A stretch of 64,000 bases of DNA, from NCBI GenBank assembly GCA_963700145.1, contig OY969474.1:1504001-1568000 (forward strand). The letters are read 5' to 3'. Shown piece after piece: positions 4,173 through 45,091 of this stretch. Source of the DNA: an uncultured Acidobacteriota bacterium (GTDB taxonomy: Bacteria; Acidobacteriota; Thermoanaerobaculia; Multivoradales; UBA5704). The notes beneath the pieces are model-generated. The model saw only the letters and a program-made list of their open reading frames with translations. It was not told the origin of the DNA and ran no database searches. Each line of letters begins with the position of its first letter. Position 1 is the first letter of the stretch. Made by a program: the position numbers and the translations under genes.

Positions 4173-5657
4173 TCAATCCCGCTCCACCACCATCGCGAAT
4201 CCCACCCCGCCGGCCGCGCAGACCGTGGCGAGGCCGAGGTTGCCGCCGCGGCGGCGGAGCTCGTAGAGGAGCTGGGTGACGACGCGGGCGCCGGTGGCGC
4301 CGAAGGGGTGGCCGATGGCGATCGAGCCGCCGGTGACGTTGAGGCGCTCGAAGTCCACCTCGCCGAGCGGCGCGCTGCGGCCCAGCTCGCGCTCGGCGAA
4401 CTTGCGCGAGGCGAAGGCCTTGAGGTTCGAGAGGATCTGCGCCGCGAAGGCCTCGTGCATCTCGACGAGGTCCATGTCGGCGAGGGTGGCGCCGGCGCCG
4501 TCGAGCGCCTCCGGCGCCGCGTAGGCCGGCCCCTGGAGGAGCTGCTCGCCCGGGTTGAGCGCCGTGAAGGCCCAGGAGCGGACGTAGCCGAGCGGCTGGT
4601 AGCCGAGCGCCGCGGCCTTCTGCTCGCTCATCAAGAGGACCGCCGAGCCGCCGTCGGTGAGCGGGCTGGAGTTGCCGGCGGTGAGCGTGCCGTAGCGCTT
4701 GTCGAAGACCGGCGGCAGCTTGGCCAGGGCCTCGAGCGAGCTGTCGGCGCGGATGCCGTTGTCGCGCGCCACCGCCTTGTCGTAGCGCGGCGGCGGGAAG
4801 GTGGGGGCGATCTGCGCCGCCAGCCGCCCGTCGGCGGTCGCCGCGGCGGCGCGCTGGTGCGACAGCAGCGCGATCTCGTCCTGCGCGCGGCGCGAGATGT
4901 CGTTCTCCTTCGCCATCTTCTCGGTCGACTCCCCCATCGTCAGCCCGGTCGAGTACTCCGAGATCGACGGCGGCACCGGCGCCAGGTCGGCGGGGCGGAG
5001 CTTGCCCAGCACCGCCAGCTTCTGCGGCAGCGACTTCGCCTTCGACAGCTCCATGAAGGTGCGCGCCGCCTTGCGCGAGAACTGGATGGGGACGTTGGAG
5101 AGCGACTCGGCGCCGCCGGCCAGCACCACGTCGCACTCGCCGGCGAGGATCGCCTGCGCGCCGAAGGCGATGGCACGGCTGGAGGAGGCGCAGGCGAGGT
5201 TGACGGTCACCCCAGGCACCCGCAGCGGCATCGAGGTGCGGATGACGACCTCGCGCCCGAGGTTGGGGGCGTGGAGGGCGGGCACGACGACGCCGAAGAC
5301 CGACAATTCGACGTTCTCGGGGTCGAGCGCGGCGCGGGTCAGCAGCTCCGAGGCCGCGGCGCTCGCCAGGTCGATGACGTCCATGCCCTGGAAGTCGGTG
5401 CCGGCCTTGGTGAACGGCGTGCGGCAGCCGTCGACGATCGCCACCCGCCCGCGCGGGCCGCGCAGCTCGCGCCGGGAGACTCGCTGGGTGGGGGCGTAGG
5501 CGGGGCGGCGGGCGGGTGCGCTGCCGTTGCCCTCGGCGTGCGTCCAGACGGTGTCCGCCCGCTCCCGCACCTCCTCGACGGCGCTCGCTTCGTTCGGCGG
5601 GCGGAGCGGCGGCGGAAAGTCGTTCTGCGGCTGCGGCTCCGGCGCGTCCTCGGCCAT
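4173..5657 (-). CDS. fadI: Acetyl-CoA C-acyltransferase (FadI-like thiolase)
   Basis: GCRTPF, NLACASS catalytic Cys, [21 protein letters not shown] and CAAGG thiolase motifs. Confidence 0.85.
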
Positions 5658-5684
5658 GGCGCTCCTCCGATCGGCCCAGTTATA

Positions 5685-6278
5685 TCAGCCGCCGTCGCCG
5701 GCGGCCGGCAGCGGCACGACGGCCACGCCGCGGGCCCGCCAGAACGCGAGGTCGCCCGAGGCGAGCGGCGCCGGGCCGGTGACGACCAGGGAGTGGAGCC
5801 GCCGCAGGGCAGCCCGCGGCGCGCCGGCGGCGGCGCGGCGCAAGGCGGCAAGGCGCGGGGGGTCGCCGTGGAAGACGGTCGGCCGGGCCCAGAGTGCGGA
5901 AGGGACCAGAGCCGCGGGCTCCGGCTCGAGGACGAGCGCCGCGCCGGCGAGGAGGGACCAGGTGAAGAGGACCCGGTCCGCGGGCTCCGGCAGGTCGGCG
6001 GGGAGGACTAGGACTTCGCGGCGCGAGCGGCCGAGGTCGCGGCCGGGCGGCAGGGCGGCCTCCAGCGCCCGGGCGGCGGCGGCGAGGGTACCGGCATTCG
6101 GCGCTCCCAGGACCTCCTCGACCGCCGGCGGTAGGCCCCCCCCGGCGGCCGCCCGCCCCCACCCGATCCAGTCCCAATCCCCGCCGCGCGGCACGAAGAG
6201 CCAGGGCTCCTCCGGCGCCGCCGCGGCGCGGGCGGCGAGGGCCGCGCGGAGCGGGTCGGGGGCGTCGGGCCCCGGCAT
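5685..6278 (-). CDS. Hypothetical protein resembling a shortened acyl-CoA synthetase large subdomain
   Basis: 197 aa. ARAAAAPEEPWL, ARPTVFHGDP and LVVTGPAPL...FWRARGV resemble AMP-binding enzyme segments, but there is no TSGxTG P-loop. Confidence 0.5.
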   Translation of the reverse strand: MPGPDAPDPLRAALAARAAAAPEEPWLFVPRGGDWDWIGWGRAAAGGGLPPAVEEVLGAPNAGTLAAAARALEAALPPGRDLGRSRREVLVLPADLPEPADRVLFTWSLLAGAALVLEPEPAALVPSALWARPTVFHGDPPRLAALRRAAAGAPRAALRRLHSLVVTGPAPLASGDLAFWRARGVAVVPLPAAGDGG

Positions 6279-6300
6279 GGGCTCTAGGGTCGGGGGAGCG

Positions 6301-6582
6301 CTAGGCCGCCGCGGCGGCGCGCATGACCTGGGTGATCTTCTGCTCGATGACCGGGCGCATGAGCGAGGCGGGGGGGCCGAGCTGGGCCTCGCCGACCAGG
6401 CGGGCCTCCTCGAGGCGGATGGTGCCCGTCGCGCCCGGGCCGTTGAGGTGCATCACCTCGCCGTCCCAGCGCCATTTCAGCATCCCCCCCGGGAAGGCCG
6501 CCTTGAGGCCGGCGTCGAGGAGCGGCCGCAGCTCCTCCATCGAGCGCTTCAGGGTCTCGACGACGATCGTCACACTGCTCAT
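6301..6582 (-). CDS. Small hypothetical protein (possibly polyhydroxyalkanoate-system protein-like)
   Basis: 93 aa with normal, non-shadow composition (KWRWDGEVMHLNGPGATGTIRL...IEQKI); co-oriented with the thiolase operon. Confidence 0.55.
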   Translation of the reverse strand: MSSVTIVVETLKRSMEELRPLLDAGLKAAFPGGMLKWRWDGEVMHLNGPGATGTIRLEEARLVGEAQLGPPASLMRPVIEQKITQVMRAAAAA

Positions 6583-6607
6583 GGGAGGCGGATGCTACCA
6601 TTCGCCA

Positions 6608-8347
6608 ATGAGCCGCCGTCTCCTCGCCGCCGCCCTCCTCCTCATCCTCCCCGCGAGCGCGGCGCCCCTCGCCGCCCAGGCCGTCTCCGACCCCGACCTC
6701 TACGGCAAGAGCCTCAAGGTGGCGCAGCAGGCGCTCCTCCACTACGGCGCCTACGACAACGAGACCGAGATCGAGCGGGTGAACCGCATCGGCTACGAGC
6801 TGGCCCGGCACGCGACCTCGCAGAAGTTCCCCTTCACCTTCGGCCTGGTGGACGTCGGCGTGCCCAACGCCTTCGCCCTGCCCGGCGGCCAGATCTTCGT
6901 CACCCGCGGCATGCTCGACCTGGGGCTCAGCGACGACATGCTGGCGAGCCTCCTCGGCCACGAGATCGCCCACGTCACCCTCGCCCACTACAAGCGGATG
7001 CAGCGCAAGGCGCAGCTGATGAACGTGCTGTCGACGCTGCTCGTCGCCGGCGTCGTCATCGGCTCCGACGGCGGCCGCGACGACCGCGGCCCGGCCCCGT
7101 ACGACCCACGCCAGCCGGAGCGGGACTCGCGCGGCAACCTGGTGCAGGGGGCCGCCGCCGCCAGCCTGGTCATCTCCGAGCTCCTGCTGCGCAGCTACAG
7201 CCGCGAGCACGAGACCGAGGCCGACGAGGAGGGGCAGCGCCTGGCCGCCGCCGCCGGCTACGACCCGATCGGCGCGCGCCAGCTCTGGGAGCTGATGCTC
7301 ACCCATTTCCCGCACGCCAAGGAGTACGGCTACTGGCAGACCCACCCCTTCCCCGACGAGCGGATGCGCGCCGCCGAGACGCGGCGCGGCCTGCTCAGCG
7401 TGGCGGCGCGGCAGCCGGCGGACGACTACCGCCTGCGCACCCAGGCCGCCCTGCTGACCTACCTCGACCGGCACGAGCCGACGCCGGAGGAGACCGATTT
7501 TCTCGAAGCGGCGGCGCTCCTCGCCTGGCCGCAGGGGAAGGCGGCCGACGAGCTGCGGCGCGAGGAGCTGGCGGCGCTGCGCGACGCCGAGCTGGCGAAG
7601 CCGCTGCTGTCGCGCGATTACGGCAGCCTCCTCGCCGCCTACCGCAAGGGGATCGAGGCGGTGCGCCGGGTGACGCCGGCGGGGGCGCCGGAGAGCCCGC
7701 TCGTCGCCGAGCTGCAGCGCGAAGTGGCAGGCTTCGAGGCGAGCCTCGGGGACCTCTACCCCAGGGCCAAGGAGGTGCTGGCCGGCGGGGTCTACGAGAC
7801 CTCGTTCCTGACCGGCTTCCTCTCGAACTTCGCCGACAAGCCCGAGGTGCCGCAGGTGGCGCTGGCCCTGGGCGACGCCTACGCCCGCCTGGGCAACGCC
7901 ACCGCCGCCGTCGAGCAGTACCTGCGCGCCTGGGAGGCGGACCCGCAGGGGACGGCGGGGAAGCGCGCCGCGACGGGCCTGCGCAACCTGGCGCCGGCGC
8001 TCGAGCAGCTCGCCGCCCTGCAGCAGCTCGTCGATCAGAAGCGCGACCCCGAGCTGCAGCGCCTGGCCGCCGAGCGCCTGGCCAAGATGGCGGCGAGCTA
8101 CCGCGAGCTTTCCAACGGCGCCGAGTACCTGCGCCGCTTCCCCGAGGCGGCGCAGGCGCAGGCGGTGCTCGGCCGGCTCGACTCCCTGGCCGACAACCTC
8201 TACGGCGAGGTCGTGCTCTACCAGGGGGTGGGCGACAACGTGAAGGCGCTCGAGCGGATGAACGCCATCCTCACCCACGCTCCCCTCTCCCCCGCCGCCG
8301 AGCGCCTGCGCGACCGCGCCGTCCTCGACCTCGAGCGGCGATCCTAG
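6608..8347 (+). CDS. M48 family zinc metalloprotease with C-terminal TPR-like region
   Basis: Signal peptide MSRRLLAAALLLILPASA; PNAFALPGG, HEIAH (HExxH), YSREHETEAD and THP motifs. Confidence 0.9.
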   Translation: MSRRLLAAALLLILPASAAPLAAQAVSDPDLYGKSLKVAQQALLHYGAYDNETEIERVNRIGYELARHATSQKFPFTFGLVDVGVPNAFALPGGQIFVTRGMLDLGLSDDMLASLLGHEIAHVTLAHYKRMQRKAQLMNVLSTLLVAGVVIGSDGGRDDRGPAPYDPRQPERDSRGNLVQGAAAASLVISELLLRSYSREHETEADEEGQRLAAAAGYDPIGARQLWELMLTHFPHAKEYGYWQTHPFPDERMRAAETRRGLLSVAARQPADDYRLRTQAALLTYLDRHEPTPEETDFLEAAALLAWPQGKAADELRREELAALRDAELAKPLLSRDYGSLLAAYRKGIEAVRRVTPAGAPESPLVAELQREVAGFEASLGDLYPRAKEVLAGGVYETSFLTGFLSNFADKPEVPQVALALGDAYARLGNATAAVEQYLRAWEADPQGTAGKRAATGLRNLAPALEQLAALQQLVDQKRDPELQRLAAERLAKMAASYRELSNGAEYLRRFPEAAQAQAVLGRLDSLADNLYGEVVLYQGVGDNVKALERMNAILTHAPLSPAAERLRDRAVLDLERRS

Positions 8348-9519: not shown

Positions 9520-17852
<8,333 letters not shown>

Positions 17853-17856
<4 letters not shown>

Positions 17857-19427
17857 CACGGCGCCTCGCCGCCGCCGCCGCGCTCCTTCTCCTCGCCCTC
17901 CCGCCGGCGCCGGCGCCCGCCGCCGAAGGCCCCTTCCCCCGCCTCATCCTCCGCGGCGCGACCCTGATCGACGGCACCGGCGCCCCCGCCGTCGGCCCGG
18001 TGGACATCGTGATCGAGAAGGAGCGCATCGCGCAGGTGGCGATCGTCGGCGCGCCGGGCGTGCCGATCGACCCGGACGACCGCCCGAAGGCCGAGCCCAG
18101 CGACCGCGAGCTGGACCTCGCCGGGATGTACGTGCTGCCCGGCTTCATCGACCTCTACGGCCACCTCCACGAGCCCTTCGACTACAGCGCCAAGCTCTTC
18201 CTGGCCCACGGCGTCACCACCGCCCGCGAGCCGATATGCGCCGCCGGCGTGCCGCGCTGCCTGGCGTTGCGCGACGAGACCGCCAAGGGGACGAGCGTGG
18301 CGCCGCGGGTCGTGCCCTACGTCTACTTCGGCCTCACCGGACCGCAGCAGACGGCGCTGCTGCCCGACGAGGCCGCGGCCCGCCGCTGGGTGGCGGAGAC
18401 CGCCAAGGCCGGCGCCGCCGGCGTGCGCTTCCGCGACTTCTCCCCCGCGGTCCTCGCCGCGGCGGTCGACGAGGCGCACAAGCGCGGCCTCCGCACCTCC
18501 GCCCACCTCGACCAGCTCCTGGTGGCGCGCGCCGACGCCCTCGACGCGGCGCGCGCCGGGCTCGACATCCTGGAGCACTGGTACGGCCTCCCCGAGGCGC
18601 TCCTCGAGGGCCGCACCCTCCAGGACTTCCCGCCCGACTACAACTACAACGAGGTGCAGCAGCGCTTCGCCGCCGCCGGCAGGCTCTGGCGGCAGGCGGC
18701 GCCGCCGGGGAGCGAGCGCTGGAACGCGGTGCTCGCCGAGCTGGCGGAAGAGGGGCTGGTGCTGGTCCCCACCTTGAGCCTCTACGAGGCCAACCGCGAC
18801 CTGATGCGCGCCCGCACCGCCGAGTGGCACGCGCTCTACACCCTGCCGGCGCTCTGGGACTCCTTCGCCCCCGACCGCGCCGCCCACGCCGCGCACTGGT
18901 TCTACTGGACGACAGAGGAAGAGGTGGAGTGGGGGCGCAACTACCGCCTCTGGATGGAGCTCCTCAACGCCTACAAGAACCGCGGCGGCCCGGTGGCGGT
19001 GGGCTCGGACTCCGGCTTCATGTACAGCCTCCACGGCTTCGCTTACGTGCGCGAGCTGGAGCTGCTGCGCGAGGCGGGCTTCCACCCGCTGGAGGTGATC
19101 CGCGCCGCCACCCTAGAAGGCGCCCGGGCCCTCGGCCTCGACGCCGACTTGGGCAGCGTCGAGCCCGGCAAGCGCGCCGACCTCGTCGTCGTCGCCGAGA
19201 ACCCCCTCGCCAACCTGAAGGTCCTCTACGGCACCGGCGCCTTGAAGCTCGACGCCGACAACCGCCCCATCCGCGTCGGCGGCGTCCGCTGGACGATCAA
19301 GGACGGCGTCCTCCACGACGCGCCCGCGCTCCTCGCCGAGGTGCGGAAGACGGTCGCCGAGGCATGGGCGAAGGCGGGGCGCTCACCCGCGCAACCAGGG
19401 CTGGAGCCCGCGACGCCGAAGCCGTAG
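17853..19427 (+). CDS. Secreted amidohydrolase-superfamily protein
   Basis: ATGA overlap with the NRPS1 stop; signal peptide; LRGATLIDGTG, PGFIDLYGH, AHLD, LEHWYG, VGSDSG and GSVEPGKRADLVV motifs. Confidence 0.88.
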
Positions 19428-21677
19428 TTACTGCAGCCAGGCGTAGCCCACCTTGACGAAGAAGGCGCGGTCGCGTTGTCGGAGGTCGATCTCGACGCTC
19501 CCCTCGTAGTCGTCCGAGTAGCCCACCAGCAGCACCGTCTGCGGGTTCAGCTTGTAGGAGAAGAGGAACTGGGTGAAGAGGGTCTCCTCCTCGGGCGCCA
19601 CCGGGAAGGTCCAGCGCTCGACCTCCCGCTCGACGTCGAGGTACTGCACGATGACGCGCGCGAAGGAGCGGACGTTGAAGTGGTAGAGGAGCTTGCCCTG
19701 GGTCAGGTTCGCCTCCTGGAACCGCGGGCCGCTCTTGATGTCGAAGGTCTGCCAGGTGTGGTCGAACGACCCCTGGACGTGCCGGCCGATGCGGAAGTCG
19801 ATCGTCGGCTGGATGAGCTCGAACTCGGCCTGCCGGGCGTTGTTGAAGTCGATGATCTCGCCGCCGCGGATGAAGAGCTGGAGGCCGAGGTTGCCGCTCG
19901 GGCGCAGGCCGAGCAGCAGGTCGCGGCGGAAGTTCTCGTACTCGACGCCGCGGAAGGCCTCCTTGTTGGGGCGCAGCCCGAGGCGCGCGAGGCTCTGCAG
20001 CGCGCCCTCGTAGGTGAAGACGATGTTGGTGCTCTTCTCGAAGAGGTCGCCGTCGAAGGTCCGCGCGTCGTTGGTGTTGAGGTCGAATTGCAGGCGCGAG
20101 AACCAGCCGCCCTCGCGCCCCCACACCGTGCGCACTACCTGGCCGTAGGCCTCCTTGATGTCCACCTGCGGCAGGAAGCCGCTGTCGGCGCGGAACTCCG
20201 GATCGCGGGAGTTGTAGCCGAAGTCCCAGGCCCAGTTGCGGGTGGCGTGCGAGTAGTCGACGCGCCAGGCCGGGCCGCTGAGCTCGTCGAGCGGCTGGCC
20301 GTTGTCGATCGCCACCTGCCGGTCGTAGCGGGTCTCGGAGTTGACCGCCTGGAAGCGGATGGTGTCGGCGTCGGTCGGGCGCAGCGAGCCGTCGAGGCCG
20401 TAGACGCGGTTGAAGTAGTCGCCGTCCCCCTCGCGGTCGGCGAGGAGGACGCCCAAAGTCGAGGTCTTGCCGATGTCGCGCCGCCAGCGCACGACGGCGC
20501 TGCGCACGTCCTCGTCGAGCGAGGTGAAGCCCGACTCCTCGGCGCCGGGGAAGATCAGGTTGTTGATGCGGTCCTCGGCGGCGAAGACGCCGAAGGCGTT
20601 GCTCCCTTCCTTGCCGGTGAGCTTGAGCCCGACCTTGGGGTCGGCGACCGTGCGGGTGAAGACGACCTGGTAGGGGGTGGCGAAGAAGTCCGCCCCCTCG
20701 AGGAAGAACGGCCGCTTCTCAGGGAAGAAGAGGGCGAAGCGCTCGTTGACGTTGAGCTGGGCGACGTCGGCCTCGACCTGCGAGAAGTCGGGGTTGACGG
20801 CGGCGTTGAGCGCCACGTTGGGCGTGATCGCCCAGCGCACTGAGACGCCGGCCTCGAACTCCTCGTCCCCCGACGCCAGCGGCTGGTCGAGGGCCGACCG
20901 CTCGTCGGTGCGCTTGGCGGTCACCGTCGGGACGACCTCCAGGTTGTAGCCGCTCTCGACACGCTGGAACCCCTCGATCGAGTCGAACTGGCAGACCAGG
21001 CAGTCGAGGCTGCGGTCGTTGCGCGTCGAGCGGAGCTGGTGGAGGACCGAGCGCGGGTAGGCGCGCAGCGCCAGGAACCCCCAGGTCTGCGGCCGCTCGC
21101 CGCGCGGGAAGCGGAGCTGCTTCCAGGGGACGGCGATCTCCACCTCGTAGCCGTCCGTGGTGATCCTGCCGGCCGAGTCCCAGATGGCGTCCCAGGAGAA
21201 GTCCTCGGTGGCGTCGACGTCGCTCACCGTCGCCTCCATCTGCACCCCCAGCGGGTTGACGCGGAACTCGAAGGCGCGGCGGCGGTCGTTGAAGGTGTCG
21301 ATCATGAAGCCGACGGCGTCGTCGTTGAAGGCGGTGTCGCGGTCGGCCAGGTAGGCGCGGATCGCGCCCGGCTCGGGGTCGTGGGCGCGGAAGCCGACGT
21401 AGAGGTTCTCGTCGTCGAAGGTGACCAGGCACTCGGTGGCAACCGGCGGCGGGGTGTTGTCGCCCGGCAGCCACTCGTGAGTGAGCGGGACGACCGCGGC
21501 GGTCTCCCAGGCGGTCTCAGAAAGGGCGCCGTCCACCGCGATGTCCGAGGCGGCCGGGGCGACGGGGAAATAGTTGCGGCCCGGCTTCTCGCCGGGGTCG
21601 GCCTGCTGGGCGGTGGCGATCAGGGCGGGGCAGAACAGCACGACAAAACACGCCGCGAGGCGCGCAAAGGCTCCCAT
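19428..21677 (-). CDS. DUF5916-like exported/outer-membrane protein with N-terminal carbohydrate-binding family 9-like domain
   Basis: Start MGAFARLAAC after GAGGAGG. IAVDGALSETAW, DTFNDRRRAFEFRVNPLG, NPDFSQVEAD and FFPEKRPFFLEG motifs; C-terminal FFVKVGYAW beta-strand. Confidence 0.85.
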   Translation of the reverse strand: MGAFARLAACFVVLFCPALIATAQQADPGEKPGRNYFPVAPAASDIAVDGALSETAWETAAVVPLTHEWLPGDNTPPPVATECLVTFDDENLYVGFRAHDPEPGAIRAYLADRDTAFNDDAVGFMIDTFNDRRRAFEFRVNPLGVQMEATVSDVDATEDFSWDAIWDSAGRITTDGYEVEIAVPWKQLRFPRGERPQTWGFLALRAYPRSVLHQLRSTRNDRSLDCLVCQFDSIEGFQRVESGYNLEVVPTVTAKRTDERSALDQPLASGDEEFEAGVSVRWAITPNVALNAAVNPDFSQVEADVAQLNVNERFALFFPEKRPFFLEGADFFATPYQVVFTRTVADPKVGLKLTGKEGSNAFGVFAAEDRINNLIFPGAEESGFTSLDEDVRSAVVRWRRDIGKTSTLGVLLADREGDGDYFNRVYGLDGSLRPTDADTIRFQAVNSETRYDRQVAIDNGQPLDELSGPAWRVDYSHATRNWAWDFGYNSRDPEFRADSGFLPQVDIKEAYGQVVRTVWGREGGWFSRLQFDLNTNDARTFDGDLFEKSTNIVFTYEGALQSLARLGLRPNKEAFRGVEYENFRRDLLLGLRPSGNLGLQLFIRGGEIIDFNNARQAEFELIQPTIDFRIGRHVQGSFDHTWQTFDIKSGPRFQEANLTQGKLLYHFNVRSFARVIVQYLDVEREVERWTFPVAPEEETLFTQFLFSYKLNPQTVLLVGYSDDYEGSVEIDLRQRDRAFFVKVGYAWLQ

Positions 21678-21768
21678 GTGAGGATCCTCCTCGTTTCCAG
21701 AGTGTCCCATGAAGGCTACCGGGAGACGGAGCGCTAGACTCGGGCCCGGAATCCGAAGGAGGCGAGCG

Positions 21769-23328
21769 ATGCGGCAGAGCTGGAAGCGGCGGGCGTGGCG
21801 GTCGGCGGCGGCGGTGGTGATCCTCTCGGCCTTCGCGATGGCGGGCTGCCGGTCGGCGGGACCGGCCAAGCCGGGGGTGGTGGTCGAGCCGGCCCCGGCG
21901 CCCGGCGCGGCGGCGGGCGCCGTCATGCTGCCGCCGCGGGTCGAGCTGGCCCCGTGCGGTCCGGCGCAGCTCGGCCCGCAGCCCGCGCCGGAGATGGCCG
22001 GCGCGCAGTGCGGCGTCTACGAGGTCTTCGAGAACCAGCGCACGCGCGCCGGCCGCACCATCCCGCTGCAGGTCCTGGTGCTGCCCGCGACCGGCCCCGA
22101 GCGGCAGCCGGACCCTCTCCTGGTGCTGCTCGGCGGCCCCGGCCAGGGCGCGGTCGCCGCGGCGCCGATCTTCGCCAAGGCGTTCGCGCCGCTGCGGCAG
22201 AAGCGCGACCTGGTCTTCATCGACCAGCGCGGCACCGGCGGCTCGCGCCCGCTACACTGCCCGCTGCCCGGCAGCGACGACGACCCGCAGGCCTTCCTCG
22301 GCGACTTCCTGCCGGTCGAGGCCGTGCGCGCCTGCCTCGCCGCGCTCGACGCCGACCCGCGCCTCTACACCACGACGCACGCGGTCGAGGACCTCGAGGA
22401 GGTGCGCTCGGCCCTCCAGTACCCGCGCCTCAACGTCTTCGGCCACTCCTACGGCTCGCGCACGGCGCTGGTCTGGATGCGCACCTTCCCGGCGAGCGTG
22501 CGCGCCGCGGTCCTCTACGGCGCGGCGCCCACCGACATGCACCCCCCCCTCAACCACGCGCCCGACGCCCAACGCGCGCTCGACCGCCTGCTGGCGGAGT
22601 GCGCCGCCGACGCCGCCTGCGGCGCCGCCTACCCCGACCTGCCGGGCAAGCTCCAAGAGGTGCTGGCGCGGCTGGCGGCGGCGCCGGCGGAAGTCGAGAT
22701 CGAGGACCCGAAGACCAAGCGGCCGGTGCGGCTGCGGTTGTCCCGTGACCTCTATGCCGAGGTGCTGCGCTGGCGCCTCTACGACGAGCGGGCGGCGAGC
22801 CTGCCGTCGTTCATCGCCGCCGCCCACGCCGGCGACTTCGCGCCGGTGGCCCGCGCGGCGCTCGGGCTGCGGCGGGCGGGCGCCACCGGCGCGCTCCTGG
22901 CGGTCGGGACGTTCCTCTCGACGACCTGCGCCGAGGACGTGCCCGAGATCGAGAAGGCGGAGGCCGACCGGCTGGCGAAGGGGACCTTCCTCGGCAGCTA
23001 CCGCGTGGATCAGCAGCGCCGCGCCTGCGAGGTCTGGCCGCGCAACGACCTGCCGCGCGGCTACGAGGCCCCGGTCACCGCGCCGGTCCCGACCCTCGTC
23101 GTCTCCGGCGAGCGCGACCCGGTGACCCCGCCGCGCTGGGGCGAGAAGGTCACGAGCCACCTGCCACGTGCCAGCCACCTCGTCCTCCCCCACGGCGCCC
23201 ACGGCGTCCCCGGCCCCTGCCTGGCCGAAGTCTTCGCCGAATTCCTCGACCGCGCCGACCCGCAAGGGCTCGACACGAGCTGTGTCGAGAAGATCGAGCG
23301 GCCGGCGTTCGTGCTGCCTGGGGGGTAA
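21769..23328 (+). CDS. Alpha/beta hydrolase lipoprotein (S33/TAP-like peptidase)
   Basis: AAGGAGG RBS before ATG 21769; lipobox AMAGC; GGPG, DQRGTG, GHSYG nucleophile, GERDPVT and GAHG triad motifs. Confidence 0.88.
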   Translation: MRQSWKRRAWRSAAAVVILSAFAMAGCRSAGPAKPGVVVEPAPAPGAAAGAVMLPPRVELAPCGPAQLGPQPAPEMAGAQCGVYEVFENQRTRAGRTIPLQVLVLPATGPERQPDPLLVLLGGPGQGAVAAAPIFAKAFAPLRQKRDLVFIDQRGTGGSRPLHCPLPGSDDDPQAFLGDFLPVEAVRACLAALDADPRLYTTTHAVEDLEEVRSALQYPRLNVFGHSYGSRTALVWMRTFPASVRAAVLYGAAPTDMHPPLNHAPDAQRALDRLLAECAADAACGAAYPDLPGKLQEVLARLAAAPAEVEIEDPKTKRPVRLRLSRDLYAEVLRWRLYDERAASLPSFIAAAHAGDFAPVARAALGLRRAGATGALLAVGTFLSTTCAEDVPEIEKAEADRLAKGTFLGSYRVDQQRRACEVWPRNDLPRGYEAPVTAPVPTLVVSGERDPVTPPRWGEKVTSHLPRASHLVLPHGAHGVPGPCLAEVFAEFLDRADPQGLDTSCVEKIERPAFVLPGG

Positions 23329-23331
23329 AGC

Positions 23332-23445
23332 TCAGCCGCTGGTCGTGCCGCGCGCTTTCGCCACGTCGGCGAGGGCGGCCAGGAACACGTCGGGATTGGG
23401 ATCTTCCAACGCCGCGGTCAGGTACTCCGCAATCGTCTCCACCGC
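23332..23445 (-). pseudogene. Remnant of an addiction-module antidote protein (HI1420-like)
   Basis: ETIAEYLTAALEDPNPDVFLAALADVAKARG matches the N-terminal half of this antitoxin family as I recall it. It stops before the HTH, and the 5' end is replaced by the tandem repeat. Confidence 0.65.
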
Positions 23446-23449
23446 GGCC

Positions 23450-23680
23450 GCCGACCCACTCGGTTCCGCTGCGGACCCACTCGGTTCGGCCGGTGGACCC
23501 AGTCGGTTCCGTCGCGGACCCACTCAGTTCGCCGCTGGACCCACTCGGTTCGGCCGATGACCCACCCGGTTCGCCGCCGGACCCACTCGGTTCAGCCGCC
23601 GATCCAGCCGGTTCGGCCGCTGCTCCAGTCGGTTCGGCCGCCGACCCACTTGGTTCGGCCGCCGACCCACCCATTCGGCC
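23450..23680. repeat. Degenerate 21-bp tandem repeat, about 11 copies
   Basis: Consensus GCCGACCCACTCGGTTCGGCC, head-to-tail without spacers; one unit is 22 nt. Confidence 0.92.
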
Positions 23681-23752
23681 GCCGGTTTACCCTGTCCCGC
23701 TCGCGGGCTGGGCGAACACCGTACAATTGGCGCTCGCGGCGGAGGGGGACGT

Positions 23753-24757
23753 GTGCCGCAACACGAAATGACTCAGCGACTTCGCGGATGGTCTACGGTG
23801 AGGACGGCAGCACTGCTGCTCTGCGCCGTTTTGTGCGCCGGCGGCGCCTGGGCCGTGCCGAACGGGCCGGTCGCGGCCGCCGCCCCGGCTCCCGGTCTCG
23901 AGGGGCTGTGGGAGGGGCTGATCGTCTATCGCTCCGCCGAGGTCGAGATCGAGTTCGCCGTCGAGGTCGCGCGCGACGCGAACGGCAAGCTGGTGGGGAC
24001 GATCGACATCCCGAACCAGCAGCTCCAGTTCCACCCCCTCGACCGCGTGGCGCTCGACGGGCGCAAGGGGGAGCTTGCGTTCACCTGGTTCGTGCCGCAC
24101 GCGCAGCAGAACGTCTCGACGACCTTCACCGGCACCCTGACCGGCGACGGCAAGAGCTTCGCCGGCACCCTGGTCGAGAGCGACGCGCCGGAGACCAGCG
24201 TCCCCTTCACCATGCGCCGGGTCGGCGACCCCGGCACGCCGCGCCCGGAGACCAAGCAGGGCGCGCTCCTGCCCCTCTCCCCCGCCGCCGCCGAGCTCAA
24301 GGAAGCCTTCAACCGCGACGCCGGGAAGACCCGCCTCGTCATGCTCCTCTCCCCGACGTGAGGGGTGTGCCTGATCAGCGCCCGGGTGGTGCAACGTTAC
24401 GTGCTGGACGAGATCGCGAGCGACGACCTGCGGGTCTACACGGTCTGGGGGCCGATGCTGGGCGACGAGAAGGAGCCCGACGCCCGACGCGCCACGGTCT
24501 CTCTCCCCGATCCGCGGGTGAGTCACTTCTGGACCGATGCGCACGGCGTCGCCGAGGCGTTCCAGGCGCCGCTCGCGCTGACCGCGGAGCGCGCCTGGGA
24601 TACTTTCCTGCTCTACCCGCCGGACGCCCGCTGGGCGGAGGCGGCTCCCGCGCCGACCTACTACATGCACGTCGGCAAGCCGCTCCCCAAGGAGCGGCGG
24701 CTGAACGGGCAGAAGCTGGCCGACCAGGTGCGCGCCACGCTCGGGGGGGCCAGATAG
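23753..24757 (+). CDS. Putative secreted selenoprotein with C-terminal thioredoxin-like UxxC domain
   Basis: Track ORFs 23753..24361 and 24365..24757 are in frame, separated only by TGA 24359-24361 plus GGG. Read-through gives RLVMLLSPT-U-GVCLISARVVQ. GGAGG RBS, signal peptide and SECIS-like hairpin. Confidence 0.82.
24362..24400 (+). promoter_or_regulatory. Putative bacterial SECIS element
   Basis: Stem GCGCC (24378-82) / GGUGC (24388-92) with loop CGGGU. G is at loop position 2 and the loop starts 21 nt after the UGA. Folded by eye only. Confidence 0.55.
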
Positions 24758-24770
24758 GTCACCCGGGCTG

Positions 24771-41531
<16,761 letters not shown>

Positions 41532-41546
41532 CGCAGAATCGCCGGC

Positions 41547-42323
41547 GTGACCGGCCCCACCCTCCGCGCCGTCCTCCTCGGCGCCAGCAACGTCACCTTC
41601 TCGCTCCCCGCCTGGGTGGCGCGGCTGCGCGGGGCCGCCAGCGGGCCGGTCGAGGTGCTTACCGCCTGCGGCAACGGCCGCTCCTACGGCATCGAGAGCC
41701 GCTTCCTCTTCCTCCGGCGGCTGCCGGGCATCCTCGACTGCGGGCTCTGGGAGGAGCTGGCGCGCCGCCCGCCGCTGCCGACCGTGGCGCTGGTTGGCGA
41801 CGTCGGCAACGACATCCTCTACGAGCAGCCGGTGGAGCGGATCGCCGGCTGGGTGGACGACTCCCTGGCGCGGCTGAGCGGGCTCGGCGCGCGCACCGTC
41901 CTCGCCACCGGCTCGCTGCCGGTGATCGAAGGTGTGGGGCCGCTCCGCTACCTCGCCATGCGCACCTTCTTCTTCCCCGGCCGCACCCTGTCCTTCGCGC
42001 CGGCGCGCGAGCGGGCGCTGGCGCTCGACGCCGCGCTGCGCCGGCTCGCCGCGGCGCGCGGCGTCCCGCTTCTCGTGCCGGAGCCTTCCTGGTACCGGGG
42101 CGATCCGATCCACCTACGGCCCTCCTGTCGCGGCCTCGCCTGCGACGCCGCGCTCGCCGCCTGGGGGCTGCCCTGCCGGACGCCGGCGCCGCCCCCCGGT
42201 CCGCGCCGCCACCGCGGCCTCCCCGGCCTCCCCTTCCATCGCGAGCGCTTCTGCGGCGTGACGCTCCGCACCGCGCAGCCGGCGCACCGCTACGCCGACG
42301 GCACGAGCGTCAGCTTTTTCTAA
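41547..42323 (+). CDS. SGNH/GDSL-hydrolase-like protein
   Basis: LLGASN (block I-like), GDVGND (block III-like) and DPIH (block V-like) motifs; 15 nt after the TE stop. Confidence 0.6.
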   Translation: MTGPTLRAVLLGASNVTFSLPAWVARLRGAASGPVEVLTACGNGRSYGIESRFLFLRRLPGILDCGLWEELARRPPLPTVALVGDVGNDILYEQPVERIAGWVDDSLARLSGLGARTVLATGSLPVIEGVGPLRYLAMRTFFFPGRTLSFAPARERALALDAALRRLAAARGVPLLVPEPSWYRGDPIHLRPSCRGLACDAALAAWGLPCRTPAPPPGPRRHRGLPGLPFHRERFCGVTLRTAQPAHRYADGTSVSFF

Positions 42324-42415
42324 TCGTTCGCGCCGCTGCGCGGCGAGGGGAACGGTCCTCGGCGGGCGTTGTGTCCTTCGTGTGTGTGACAGACTTGCCC
42401 GTGAGTACCGGCCAC

Positions 42416-45091
<2,676 letters not shown>

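Follow-up and report, generated by a model that had tools for sequence, protein, structure and literature searches.

A probable UxxC thioredoxin-fold selenoprotein with a fused beta-barrel, encoded beside nonribosomal peptide synthetase genes in an uncultured Acidobacteriota bacterium

Thioredoxin-fold selenoproteins with a UxxC motif, in which selenocysteine (Sec, U) takes the place of the first cysteine, are a familiar kind. Extracytoplasmic thioredoxin-type enzymes are also encoded beside genes for secreted peptides and act on the sulfur chemistry of the peptide, as do BdbA and BdbB of the sublancin operon. The prokaryotic selenoprotein families catalogued in Table 1 of PMC13188914 are each defined by a Pfam, NCBIfam or CDD identifier; those with a UxxC thioredoxin fold include Sec-Trx (PF00085), a thiol:disulfide interchange protein (PF13098), Prx-like (PF00578) and redoxin (PF08534) families, together with a thiol-disulfide isomerase-like family (cd02966), SaoT (NF040730) and a HUIPC-motif family (NF047660), and none of the catalogued families, as that table presents them, is reported beside nonribosomal peptide synthetase (NRPS) genes (PMC13188914). 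Here we describe a gene at positions 23753-24757 (forward strand) of a 64,000-nucleotide stretch, which we call the window, from an uncultured Acidobacteriota bacterium of the Thermoanaerobaculia (assembly GCA_963700145.1, contig OY969474.1, positions 1,504,001 to 1,568,000). An initial annotation of the window had taken this gene for a hidden UxxC selenoprotein directly upstream of a hybrid NRPS-polyketide synthase (PKS) gene, NRPS2; we find that the interval is very probably a single gene whose UGA is decoded as selenocysteine.

Read through the in-frame TGA at 24359-24361, the gene comprises 334 codons including Sec203, plus a TAG stop at 24755-24757. Re-reading the DNA reproduced what had been annotated: the context CTC TCC CCG ACG TGA GGG GTG TGC, the 131 further open codons in the same frame, the strings VYTVWGPML, HFWTD and AWDTFLLY in the read-through translation, and the 13-nt gap between the end of the gene and the start of the NRPS open reading frame (ORF) at ATG 24771. 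The 334-residue product would carry the motif U203-G-V-C206, with the TGA providing its first position, as judged from the alignment of relatives and their DNA, and TGC 24368-24370 providing the putative resolving Cys206, which is kept in all Sec forms tabulated. We favour GTG 23753 as the start because a Shine-Dalgarno-like GGAGG (23741-23745, forward strand, identified by reading) lies 7 nt before it; ATG 23768 and GTG 23798 are in-frame alternatives that both stay in contention, the latter being where P0002 (187 aa), the gene as called in the database, begins, and the mature protein is identical whichever of the three is used.

If the TGA encodes selenocysteine, homologues would be expected to have cysteine or TGA at this codon, and this is what most relatives show. 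A word-indexed protein search returned 55 relatives in two size classes: in an alignment of these (A1), proteins of 286-353 aa read LLSPT-C-xx-C, and those of 183-218 aa all end at LLSPT. The full-length Cys homologues (286-353 aa) can be aligned with the read-through product from end to end. An exhaustive search enlarged the family to 1452 representative clusters at E <= 0.001 (539 at 1e-10 and 89 at 1e-30). When all 199 proteins from both searches were aligned, the columns of U203 and C206 held CxxC in 118; another 42 end directly before the U column, 17 start just after it, and the remaining 22 have other residue pairs, mostly SxxS-like, and are presumably non-redox members. Two-domain proteins whose motif is SxxS, AxxS or LxxS rather than CxxC (P0104, P0131, P0139, P0141, P0157, P0160, P0170 and P0174) are presumably non-redox descendants; several of them also lack the tryptophan-aspartate (W-D) pair described below.

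The corresponding codons give the same picture. A motif script run over every locus retrieved found 88 copies with TGA at the U codon, 12 with TGC and 2 with TGT (11 spurious wrong-frame matches that were neither Cys nor TGA were dropped, and the counts exclude L036 and L039); all 88 TGA copies and the 14 Cys copies have an in-frame xxC and a conserved VW.P block downstream. The 88:14 ratio of TGA to Cys overstates the share of Sec, because the patterns used in the metagenome contig scan, which contributed 80 further loci, were derived from SPT-ending sequences. The sample of genomes of the same class is free of this bias, as is the tally of 199 proteins above: 54 of 401 genomes gave a match, and among the 46 matches spanning residue 203, 25 had exactly one in-frame TGA and 21 had none. 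A paralogue in the same genome (G000:C1:2953649-2954572; about 5920-6930 of locus L044), 54% identical, keeps the TGA in the motif U-W-I-C. In one metagenome locus, L060, two partial gene copies (at 605 and 893) lie 288 nt apart on a 1272-nt contig, the second beginning within the region downstream of the first, which suggests either misassembly or a duplication in place.

Gene callers take a different view of this codon, their database entries ending at SPT or starting just after it; the Sec members are stored in databases only as 'hypothetical protein' fragments from metagenome-assembled genomes of Thermoanaerobaculia. Such calls would fit a true stop, which would leave two genes, one for a barrel protein of 202 aa and one for a fragment of 130 aa that begins at GTG 24365, or else a TGC that became TGA through a nonsense mutation or a base-call error, and the indel problems of the nearby NRPS2 assembly speak for the same explanation. 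The recurrence of TGA with a conserved downstream frame in 88 relatives argues against it, as does the predicted structure, since a stop here would sever strand 1 of the thioredoxin fold from helix 1.

An AlphaFold2 model built on A1 (predicted local distance difference test score, pLDDT, 91.1; predicted template modelling score, pTM, 0.83) has two domains behind a leader. The initial annotation had proposed a signal peptide, and inspection of the sequence, on which this assignment is based, likewise suggests one at residues 1-34 (23753-23854), with a basic n-region, a AALLLCAVLCAGG core and AWA followed by VP; pLDDT is below 60 over these residues, and the homologues all start with a comparable hydrophobic leader. 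It had also proposed an extra N-terminal beta domain, which appears in the model as a separate all-beta domain, an eight-stranded lipocalin- or avidin-like barrel at residues 51-158 (23903-24226) recognised from the AlphaFold2 strands, VIA structural matches and Foldseek. The VIA matches of the barrel (model residues 44-158) have Z scores of 10-11.4 (8ah9, 6czj, 7n34 and 3szh) and place it in the company of designed barrels, the Cap15 receptor and avidins; Foldseek matches in the PDB are weak, the best at E of about 5e-4, and comprise PGDS, which is a lipocalin, and the barrel of PvdP, a pyoverdine enzyme of the periplasm.

The C-terminal domain (residues 171-334; 24263-24754) is predicted to adopt a TlpA/ResA/DsbE-like thioredoxin fold. 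The model runs from a strand at 193-199 through U203 to a helix at 204-218, with Sec203 at the N-terminus of helix 1 and Cys206 one turn on; this order, the Cys/Sec pairing of the relatives and TlpA/ResA-like Z scores of about 12.5 bear out the thioredoxin-type UxxC that had been annotated. The top VIA matches (Z 12.5-12.8) include 3or5 (12.7), ResA 2f9s (12.5) and Mycobacterium tuberculosis DsbE 1lu4 (12.5), which superpose with root-mean-square deviations of 2.6-3.1 over 122-131 residues; CcmG, TlpA, Sco proteins, GPx and deiodinase are further fold matches. Considered together, TlpA, ResA, DsbE (CcmG) and DsbF (3or5, 2f9s, 1lu4, 1kng and 1jfu; Z 10.3-12.7, deviations of 2.6-3.1 over about 120-130 residues) share with this protein a thioredoxin fold with added elements, a dithiol motif at the start of helix 1 and export, which is probable here. 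The protein differs from them in its own signature, its fused N-terminal beta-barrel and Sec as the first cysteine, and the Pfam and NCBIfam models of their kind (AhpC-TSA, Redoxin, Thioredoxin_8 and similar) miss it at E up to 1. Among 119 CxxC members the signature consists of F186, R194, S200, P201, C203, C206, W232, D253, R255, W260, W282, D283, W294, P299 and P301; W282 and D283, conserved at 90% and 88%, directly precede the strand at 284-288, and the pair would sit where thioredoxins usually carry the cis-proline, judged from the DSSP string of the model.

Family searches place the protein outside described groups. A Pfam scan found no family at E up to 1, the barrel domain included, and an NCBIfam scan gave no meaningful match. 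The only sequence-level match in the PDB came from a profile search and was marginal: the Pyrococcus furiosus protein disulfide oxidoreductase (1a8l; glutaredoxin-like, TIGR02187 type), whose 'vRilvfvtPTCPYC' aligns with 'vRLvlLlSPtCpvC' of this family around the active site. That match has an E value of 0.053 over only 43 residues, has no NCBIfam counterpart and comes from a different overall architecture. The catalogued UxxC families of PMC13188914 resemble the present one, as far as Table 1 describes them, in Sec replacing the first Cys of CxxC within a thioredoxin fold, in having Cys-type homologues and in genes truncated by annotation; none of their Pfam or NCBIfam models matches this protein, the comparison being confined to families that have such models and leaving aside those defined by CDD alone. 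Within that same scope, the protein represents an uncatalogued UxxC thioredoxin-fold selenoprotein family that is set apart by its fused barrel and by a conserved, newly recognised association with NRPS genes. Recognising the family, with its 1452 representative clusters and its absence from Pfam and NCBIfam, repairs many gene models in soil metagenomes, and its natural Cys-type orthologues are easy to express.

Bacterial selenocysteine insertion sequence (bSECIS) elements are stem-loops shortly past the UGA with a G in the apical loop, a description said to stem from Zhang and Gladyshev's bSECISearch. A short hairpin with G at loop position 2 had been annotated here with its loop 21 nt past the TGA, and we recover it at that distance and with both features: the candidate element at 24378-24392 (forward strand) has a 5-bp stem, GCGCC (24378-24382) with GGTGC (24388-24392), GCGCC/GGUGC in RNA, and a loop CGGGT (CGGGU), and the stem begins 17 nt after the UGA. 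RNAalifold, applied to 17 distinct Sec-type sequences of the protein's own subfamily, returned a single helix, GCGCC (columns 20-24) with GGUGC (columns 30-34), which is invariant and paired in 17/17 sequences, with a loop CG[G/U]GU and a consensus energy of -7.19 kcal/mol. There is no covariation because the helix never varies, and we therefore examined synonymous sites instead. Around the TGA, 23 conserved codon columns are four- or six-fold degenerate, and in four of these synonymous variation is nil (16/16 sequences): S(+6) AGC, A(+7) GCC, V(+9) GTG and V(+10) GTG. The hairpin spans five codons, which include all of the frozen ones; variation in the remaining codon, R(+8), is confined to the third base, a loop position. 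Hand arithmetic gives a chance of 5 in 8855 for such a placement. These frozen sites are hard to reconcile with a true stop, and the hairpin probably directs recoding of the UGA.

In eight Cys-type two-domain relatives, only 57.5% of cells are paired at the hairpin columns and 212 of 500 shuffles do as well, so the window-type hairpin is not kept in Cys-type relatives, where pairing is no better than in shuffles. The single-domain branch of the family (31 sequences) has a different hairpin, which starts right after the Cys codon and is 99.1% paired; a double change from U-A to G-C occurs in 6 of the 31, and none of 500 shuffles equalled its pairing or covariation. One of those six swaps is from L043, in the unpublished genome G004, and without L043 the count is 5 of 30.

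A base-call error at the codon is unlikely because the contigs of three sequencing runs agree there, a point that also tells against a true stop. Contigs of runs X1 and X2, from one study, span 24359-24361 with no change or indel among the differences listed; a contig of about 95% identity from run X3, of another study, has a synonymous G>C at 24358, directly before the TGA, and no change at the TGA itself among its listed differences. A TGC or TGT at this codon, which would have spoken against the annotation, is absent from the changes listed for X1, X2 and X3.

Genes for selenocysteine incorporation had been named as a check on the annotation, and all four are present in this genome. The tRNA-Sec (anticodon tca by ARAGORN; 70.3 bits, cut-off 47), selA (442.9 bits), selB (361.8 bits) and selD (339.5 bits) all lie above curated cut-offs on one 5.46-Mb contig, the contig of the gene itself; a complete machinery is a further argument against the TGA being a stop, and together with the evidence above leaves that explanation very improbable. 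The selD gene (locus L012, G000:C1:3788741-3789661) has one in-frame TGA, and the selenophosphate synthetase of this genome is probably itself a selenoprotein.

Several points weigh against the selenocysteine assignment. The hairpin of the window is small, with 5 bp, and lacks covariation; the minimum-free-energy fold of the 82 nt past the UGA is no better than that of shuffled sequences (z +1.79), and an Rfam scan gave no family match, only a chance microRNA match (E 6.7). The Cys-form control for the hairpin consists of eight sequences that are more diverged, and 28 base differences lie outside the list from which the X3 comparison was drawn, so that the absence of change at the TGA in X3 holds for the listed ones. 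The machinery cannot separate carriers of the Sec form from carriers of the Cys form because selA is present in 384 of the 401 class genomes (a tally that includes five flagged as unpublished), the trait being general in this lineage; in one TGA-carrying genome, G232 (89% complete), selA was not detected. The sole RNA contig over the gene spans just 24626-24773 and possibly reflects DNA carry-over; with two short off-target pieces as the only other metatranscriptome matches, this is insufficient for claiming expression. A promoter and terminator scan of the gene region found no terminator-like site and no promoter. Co-transcription with NRPS2, as proposed in the initial annotation, would accord with the 13-nt gap, the lack of a terminator-like site and the RNA contig that extends to 24773.

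We next consider what the selenoprotein may do. Its link to the synthetase, at first drawn from adjacency alone, gains support from its relatives: at 20/20 loci with enough flank, the gene lies immediately beside NRPS or NRPS-PKS genes (relatives of at least 41% identity; L051, L054, L057 and L060 have flanks too short to be counted). By Pfam or tblastn, the sequence that comes next on the same strand encodes NRPS domains in the window and in L044-L050, L052, L053, L055, L056, L058, L059, L061, L017, L018 and L021; at L015 and L016, an NRPS T-TE terminus lies directly upstream instead. The architectures of these synthetases are diverse (C-A-T, A-MT(FkbM)-T-C, A-T-C-A and A...KS-AT), which argues against the copying of one conserved cluster. 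Upstream of the gene, amidohydrolase and MFS genes are found repeatedly. The paralogue's locus, L044, resembles the window: directly after the gene comes an NRPS whose frame stays open over at least 2015 aa, and before it, on the opposite strand, lies a DUF5916/CBM9 gene. A further link is provided by gene fusions: P0066 (877 aa) and P0138 (741 aa, with SPT as its end) join an S33 hydrolase to the barrel and thioredoxin domain, and P0137 is an S33 hydrolase fusion in reverse order, the fused hydrolase in all three being of the type encoded upstream in the window.

Because close relatives abut varied NRPS and NRPS-PKS genes and are fused to S33 hydrolases, a redox step on an exported peptide is the most likely role. 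On this reading, the N-terminal signal peptide, assigned by inspection, would direct export; the Sec203 selenolate would attack in a periplasmic thiol/disulfide (selenylsulfide) exchange that Cys206 would resolve, as in CxxC reductases; and the barrel may hold a small hydrophobic ligand. A sulfur bond of the exported peptide could be reduced, formed or exchanged, or the producer could be protected from the peptide; the initial annotation had suggested, as a possible target, a thiol that stems from the Cys-clade last module. The protein would resemble BdbA and BdbB in being an extracytoplasmic thioredoxin-type enzyme encoded beside secreted-peptide genes; those enzymes serve ribosomal peptides, use cysteine and have no barrel, whereas here nonribosomal synthetases adjoin. 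Taken whole, the explanation of an exported barrel-thioredoxin selenoprotein that carries out a redox step on an exported nonribosomal peptide is in our view a probable one; for the separate proposition that the selenoprotein acts in connection with the NRPS product, we consider the chances evenly balanced.

Some observations count against an NRPS-related role. NRPSs are cytoplasmic, whereas this protein is predicted to be exported. The two-domain relatives at L019, L020 and L022-L024, of 32-40% identity, have no NRPS within about 1.5 kb. Finally, NRPS2 is not one frame between 27700 and 35650, where at least 15 hops occur among the three forward frames, as mapped by tblastn homology to a paralogous synthetase; the flanks 24771-27731 and 35616-41531 are clean, and the frame changes are due either to assembly indels in repetitive modules or to a decaying gene.

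The distant two-domain relatives would also suit a general periplasmic housekeeping enzyme, an antioxidant or envelope reductant whose NRPS adjacency reflects shared cluster ancestry. Its closest folds are indeed housekeeping reductases (ResA, CcmG, DsbE/F and TlpA), and many of the synteny loci come from related soil Acidobacteriota and are hence non-independent. We nevertheless hold this improbable: the synthetase architectures are varied, with the gene standing before a first module or after a last TE, which is hardly the mark of one inherited cluster, and the genome's own paralogue repeats the layout at a second NRPS.

The single-domain members raise another possibility, namely that the same selenoprotein uses its U/C-xx-C motif to handle a soft metal (Cu, Hg, Zn or the like) rather than a disulfide, in periplasmic loading or unloading of an NRPS metallophore or in metal reduction. 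Selenolates bind soft metals tightly; a heavy-metal-associated (HMA) domain is fused to the thioredoxin-like domain in P0129, P0132 and P0190; and the structural comparison also picks up copper chaperones of the Sco type (6n5u, Z 10.9; 4bpy, Z 10.5). Two single-domain Sec members of locus L107 flank CopZ-type and MerT-like proteins, which also speaks for a metal substrate. Paired single-domain relatives occur there, around a CopZ-type zinc-binding protein and a MerT-like membrane protein, and also in L090 (1036/2507); the L107 order at 5070-6950 is Trx(Sec), zf_CopZ, MerT, Trx(Sec), and this arrangement is a mer-like module with two selenoproteins. The metal context is, however, confined to single-domain branches that are 32-40% identical in the domain and have no NRPS nearby, and Pfam finds no metal transporter or HMA gene in the neighbourhood of the gene in the window; we regard metal handling as rather unlikely for this protein, though it is the main rival to the peptide redox role and likelier than housekeeping. 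No NRPS lies nearby at any single-domain or group-C locus.

Returning to the redox step on a secreted peptide, we tentatively propose, with somewhat less than even confidence, that the gene encodes the first representative of selenoenzymes devoted to the biology of nonribosomal peptides. In this form of the proposal, Sec would act on a secreted NRPS or NRPS-PKS product by making, breaking or exchanging a sulfur bond, or by binding or releasing a soft metal; the lipophilic product would be lodged in the barrel, and the enzyme would work with the S33 hydrolase as a recurring accessory in soil Acidobacteriota; selenium supply would then influence the secondary metabolism of these bacteria. The conserved adjacency in itself offers natural-product research a concrete candidate for tailoring or resistance, and suggests that selenium availability may matter for Acidobacteriota secondary metabolism. 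No link between a selenoprotein and an NRPS cluster was apparent from titles and abstracts in a literature search whose coverage left out most subscription journals, and we found no literature on selenocysteine in Thermoanaerobaculia or on selenoprotein families in soil metagenomes.

The gene lies among further biosynthetic and accessory genes in the window, assigned by Pfam. On the forward strand upstream are NRPS1 (9520-17856), an amidohydrolase (17853-19427) and the S33 alpha/beta hydrolase (21709-23328), which has an Abhydrolase_1 domain and a TAP-like C-terminus; on the reverse strand are a DUF5916/CBM9 protein (19428-21926) and a HI1420-type antidote fragment (23332-23523). Downstream, NRPS2 starts with C-A in one frame (24771-27731, forward strand; Pfam Condensation and AMP-binding, and tblastn) and ends with A-T-KS-AT-T-TE (35721-41531, forward strand). 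A long ORF at 40364-45091, which encodes a Ser/Thr protein kinase domain together with numerous TPR repeats, has its listed start inside the 3' end of 35721-41531. Just 5' of the selenoprotein gene, a tandem repeat at 23445-23682 consists of 11.3 copies of a 21-nt unit with 78% matches; on its minus strand it encodes AAEPSGS-like heptads that run into the HI1420-type fragment and are out of frame with it.

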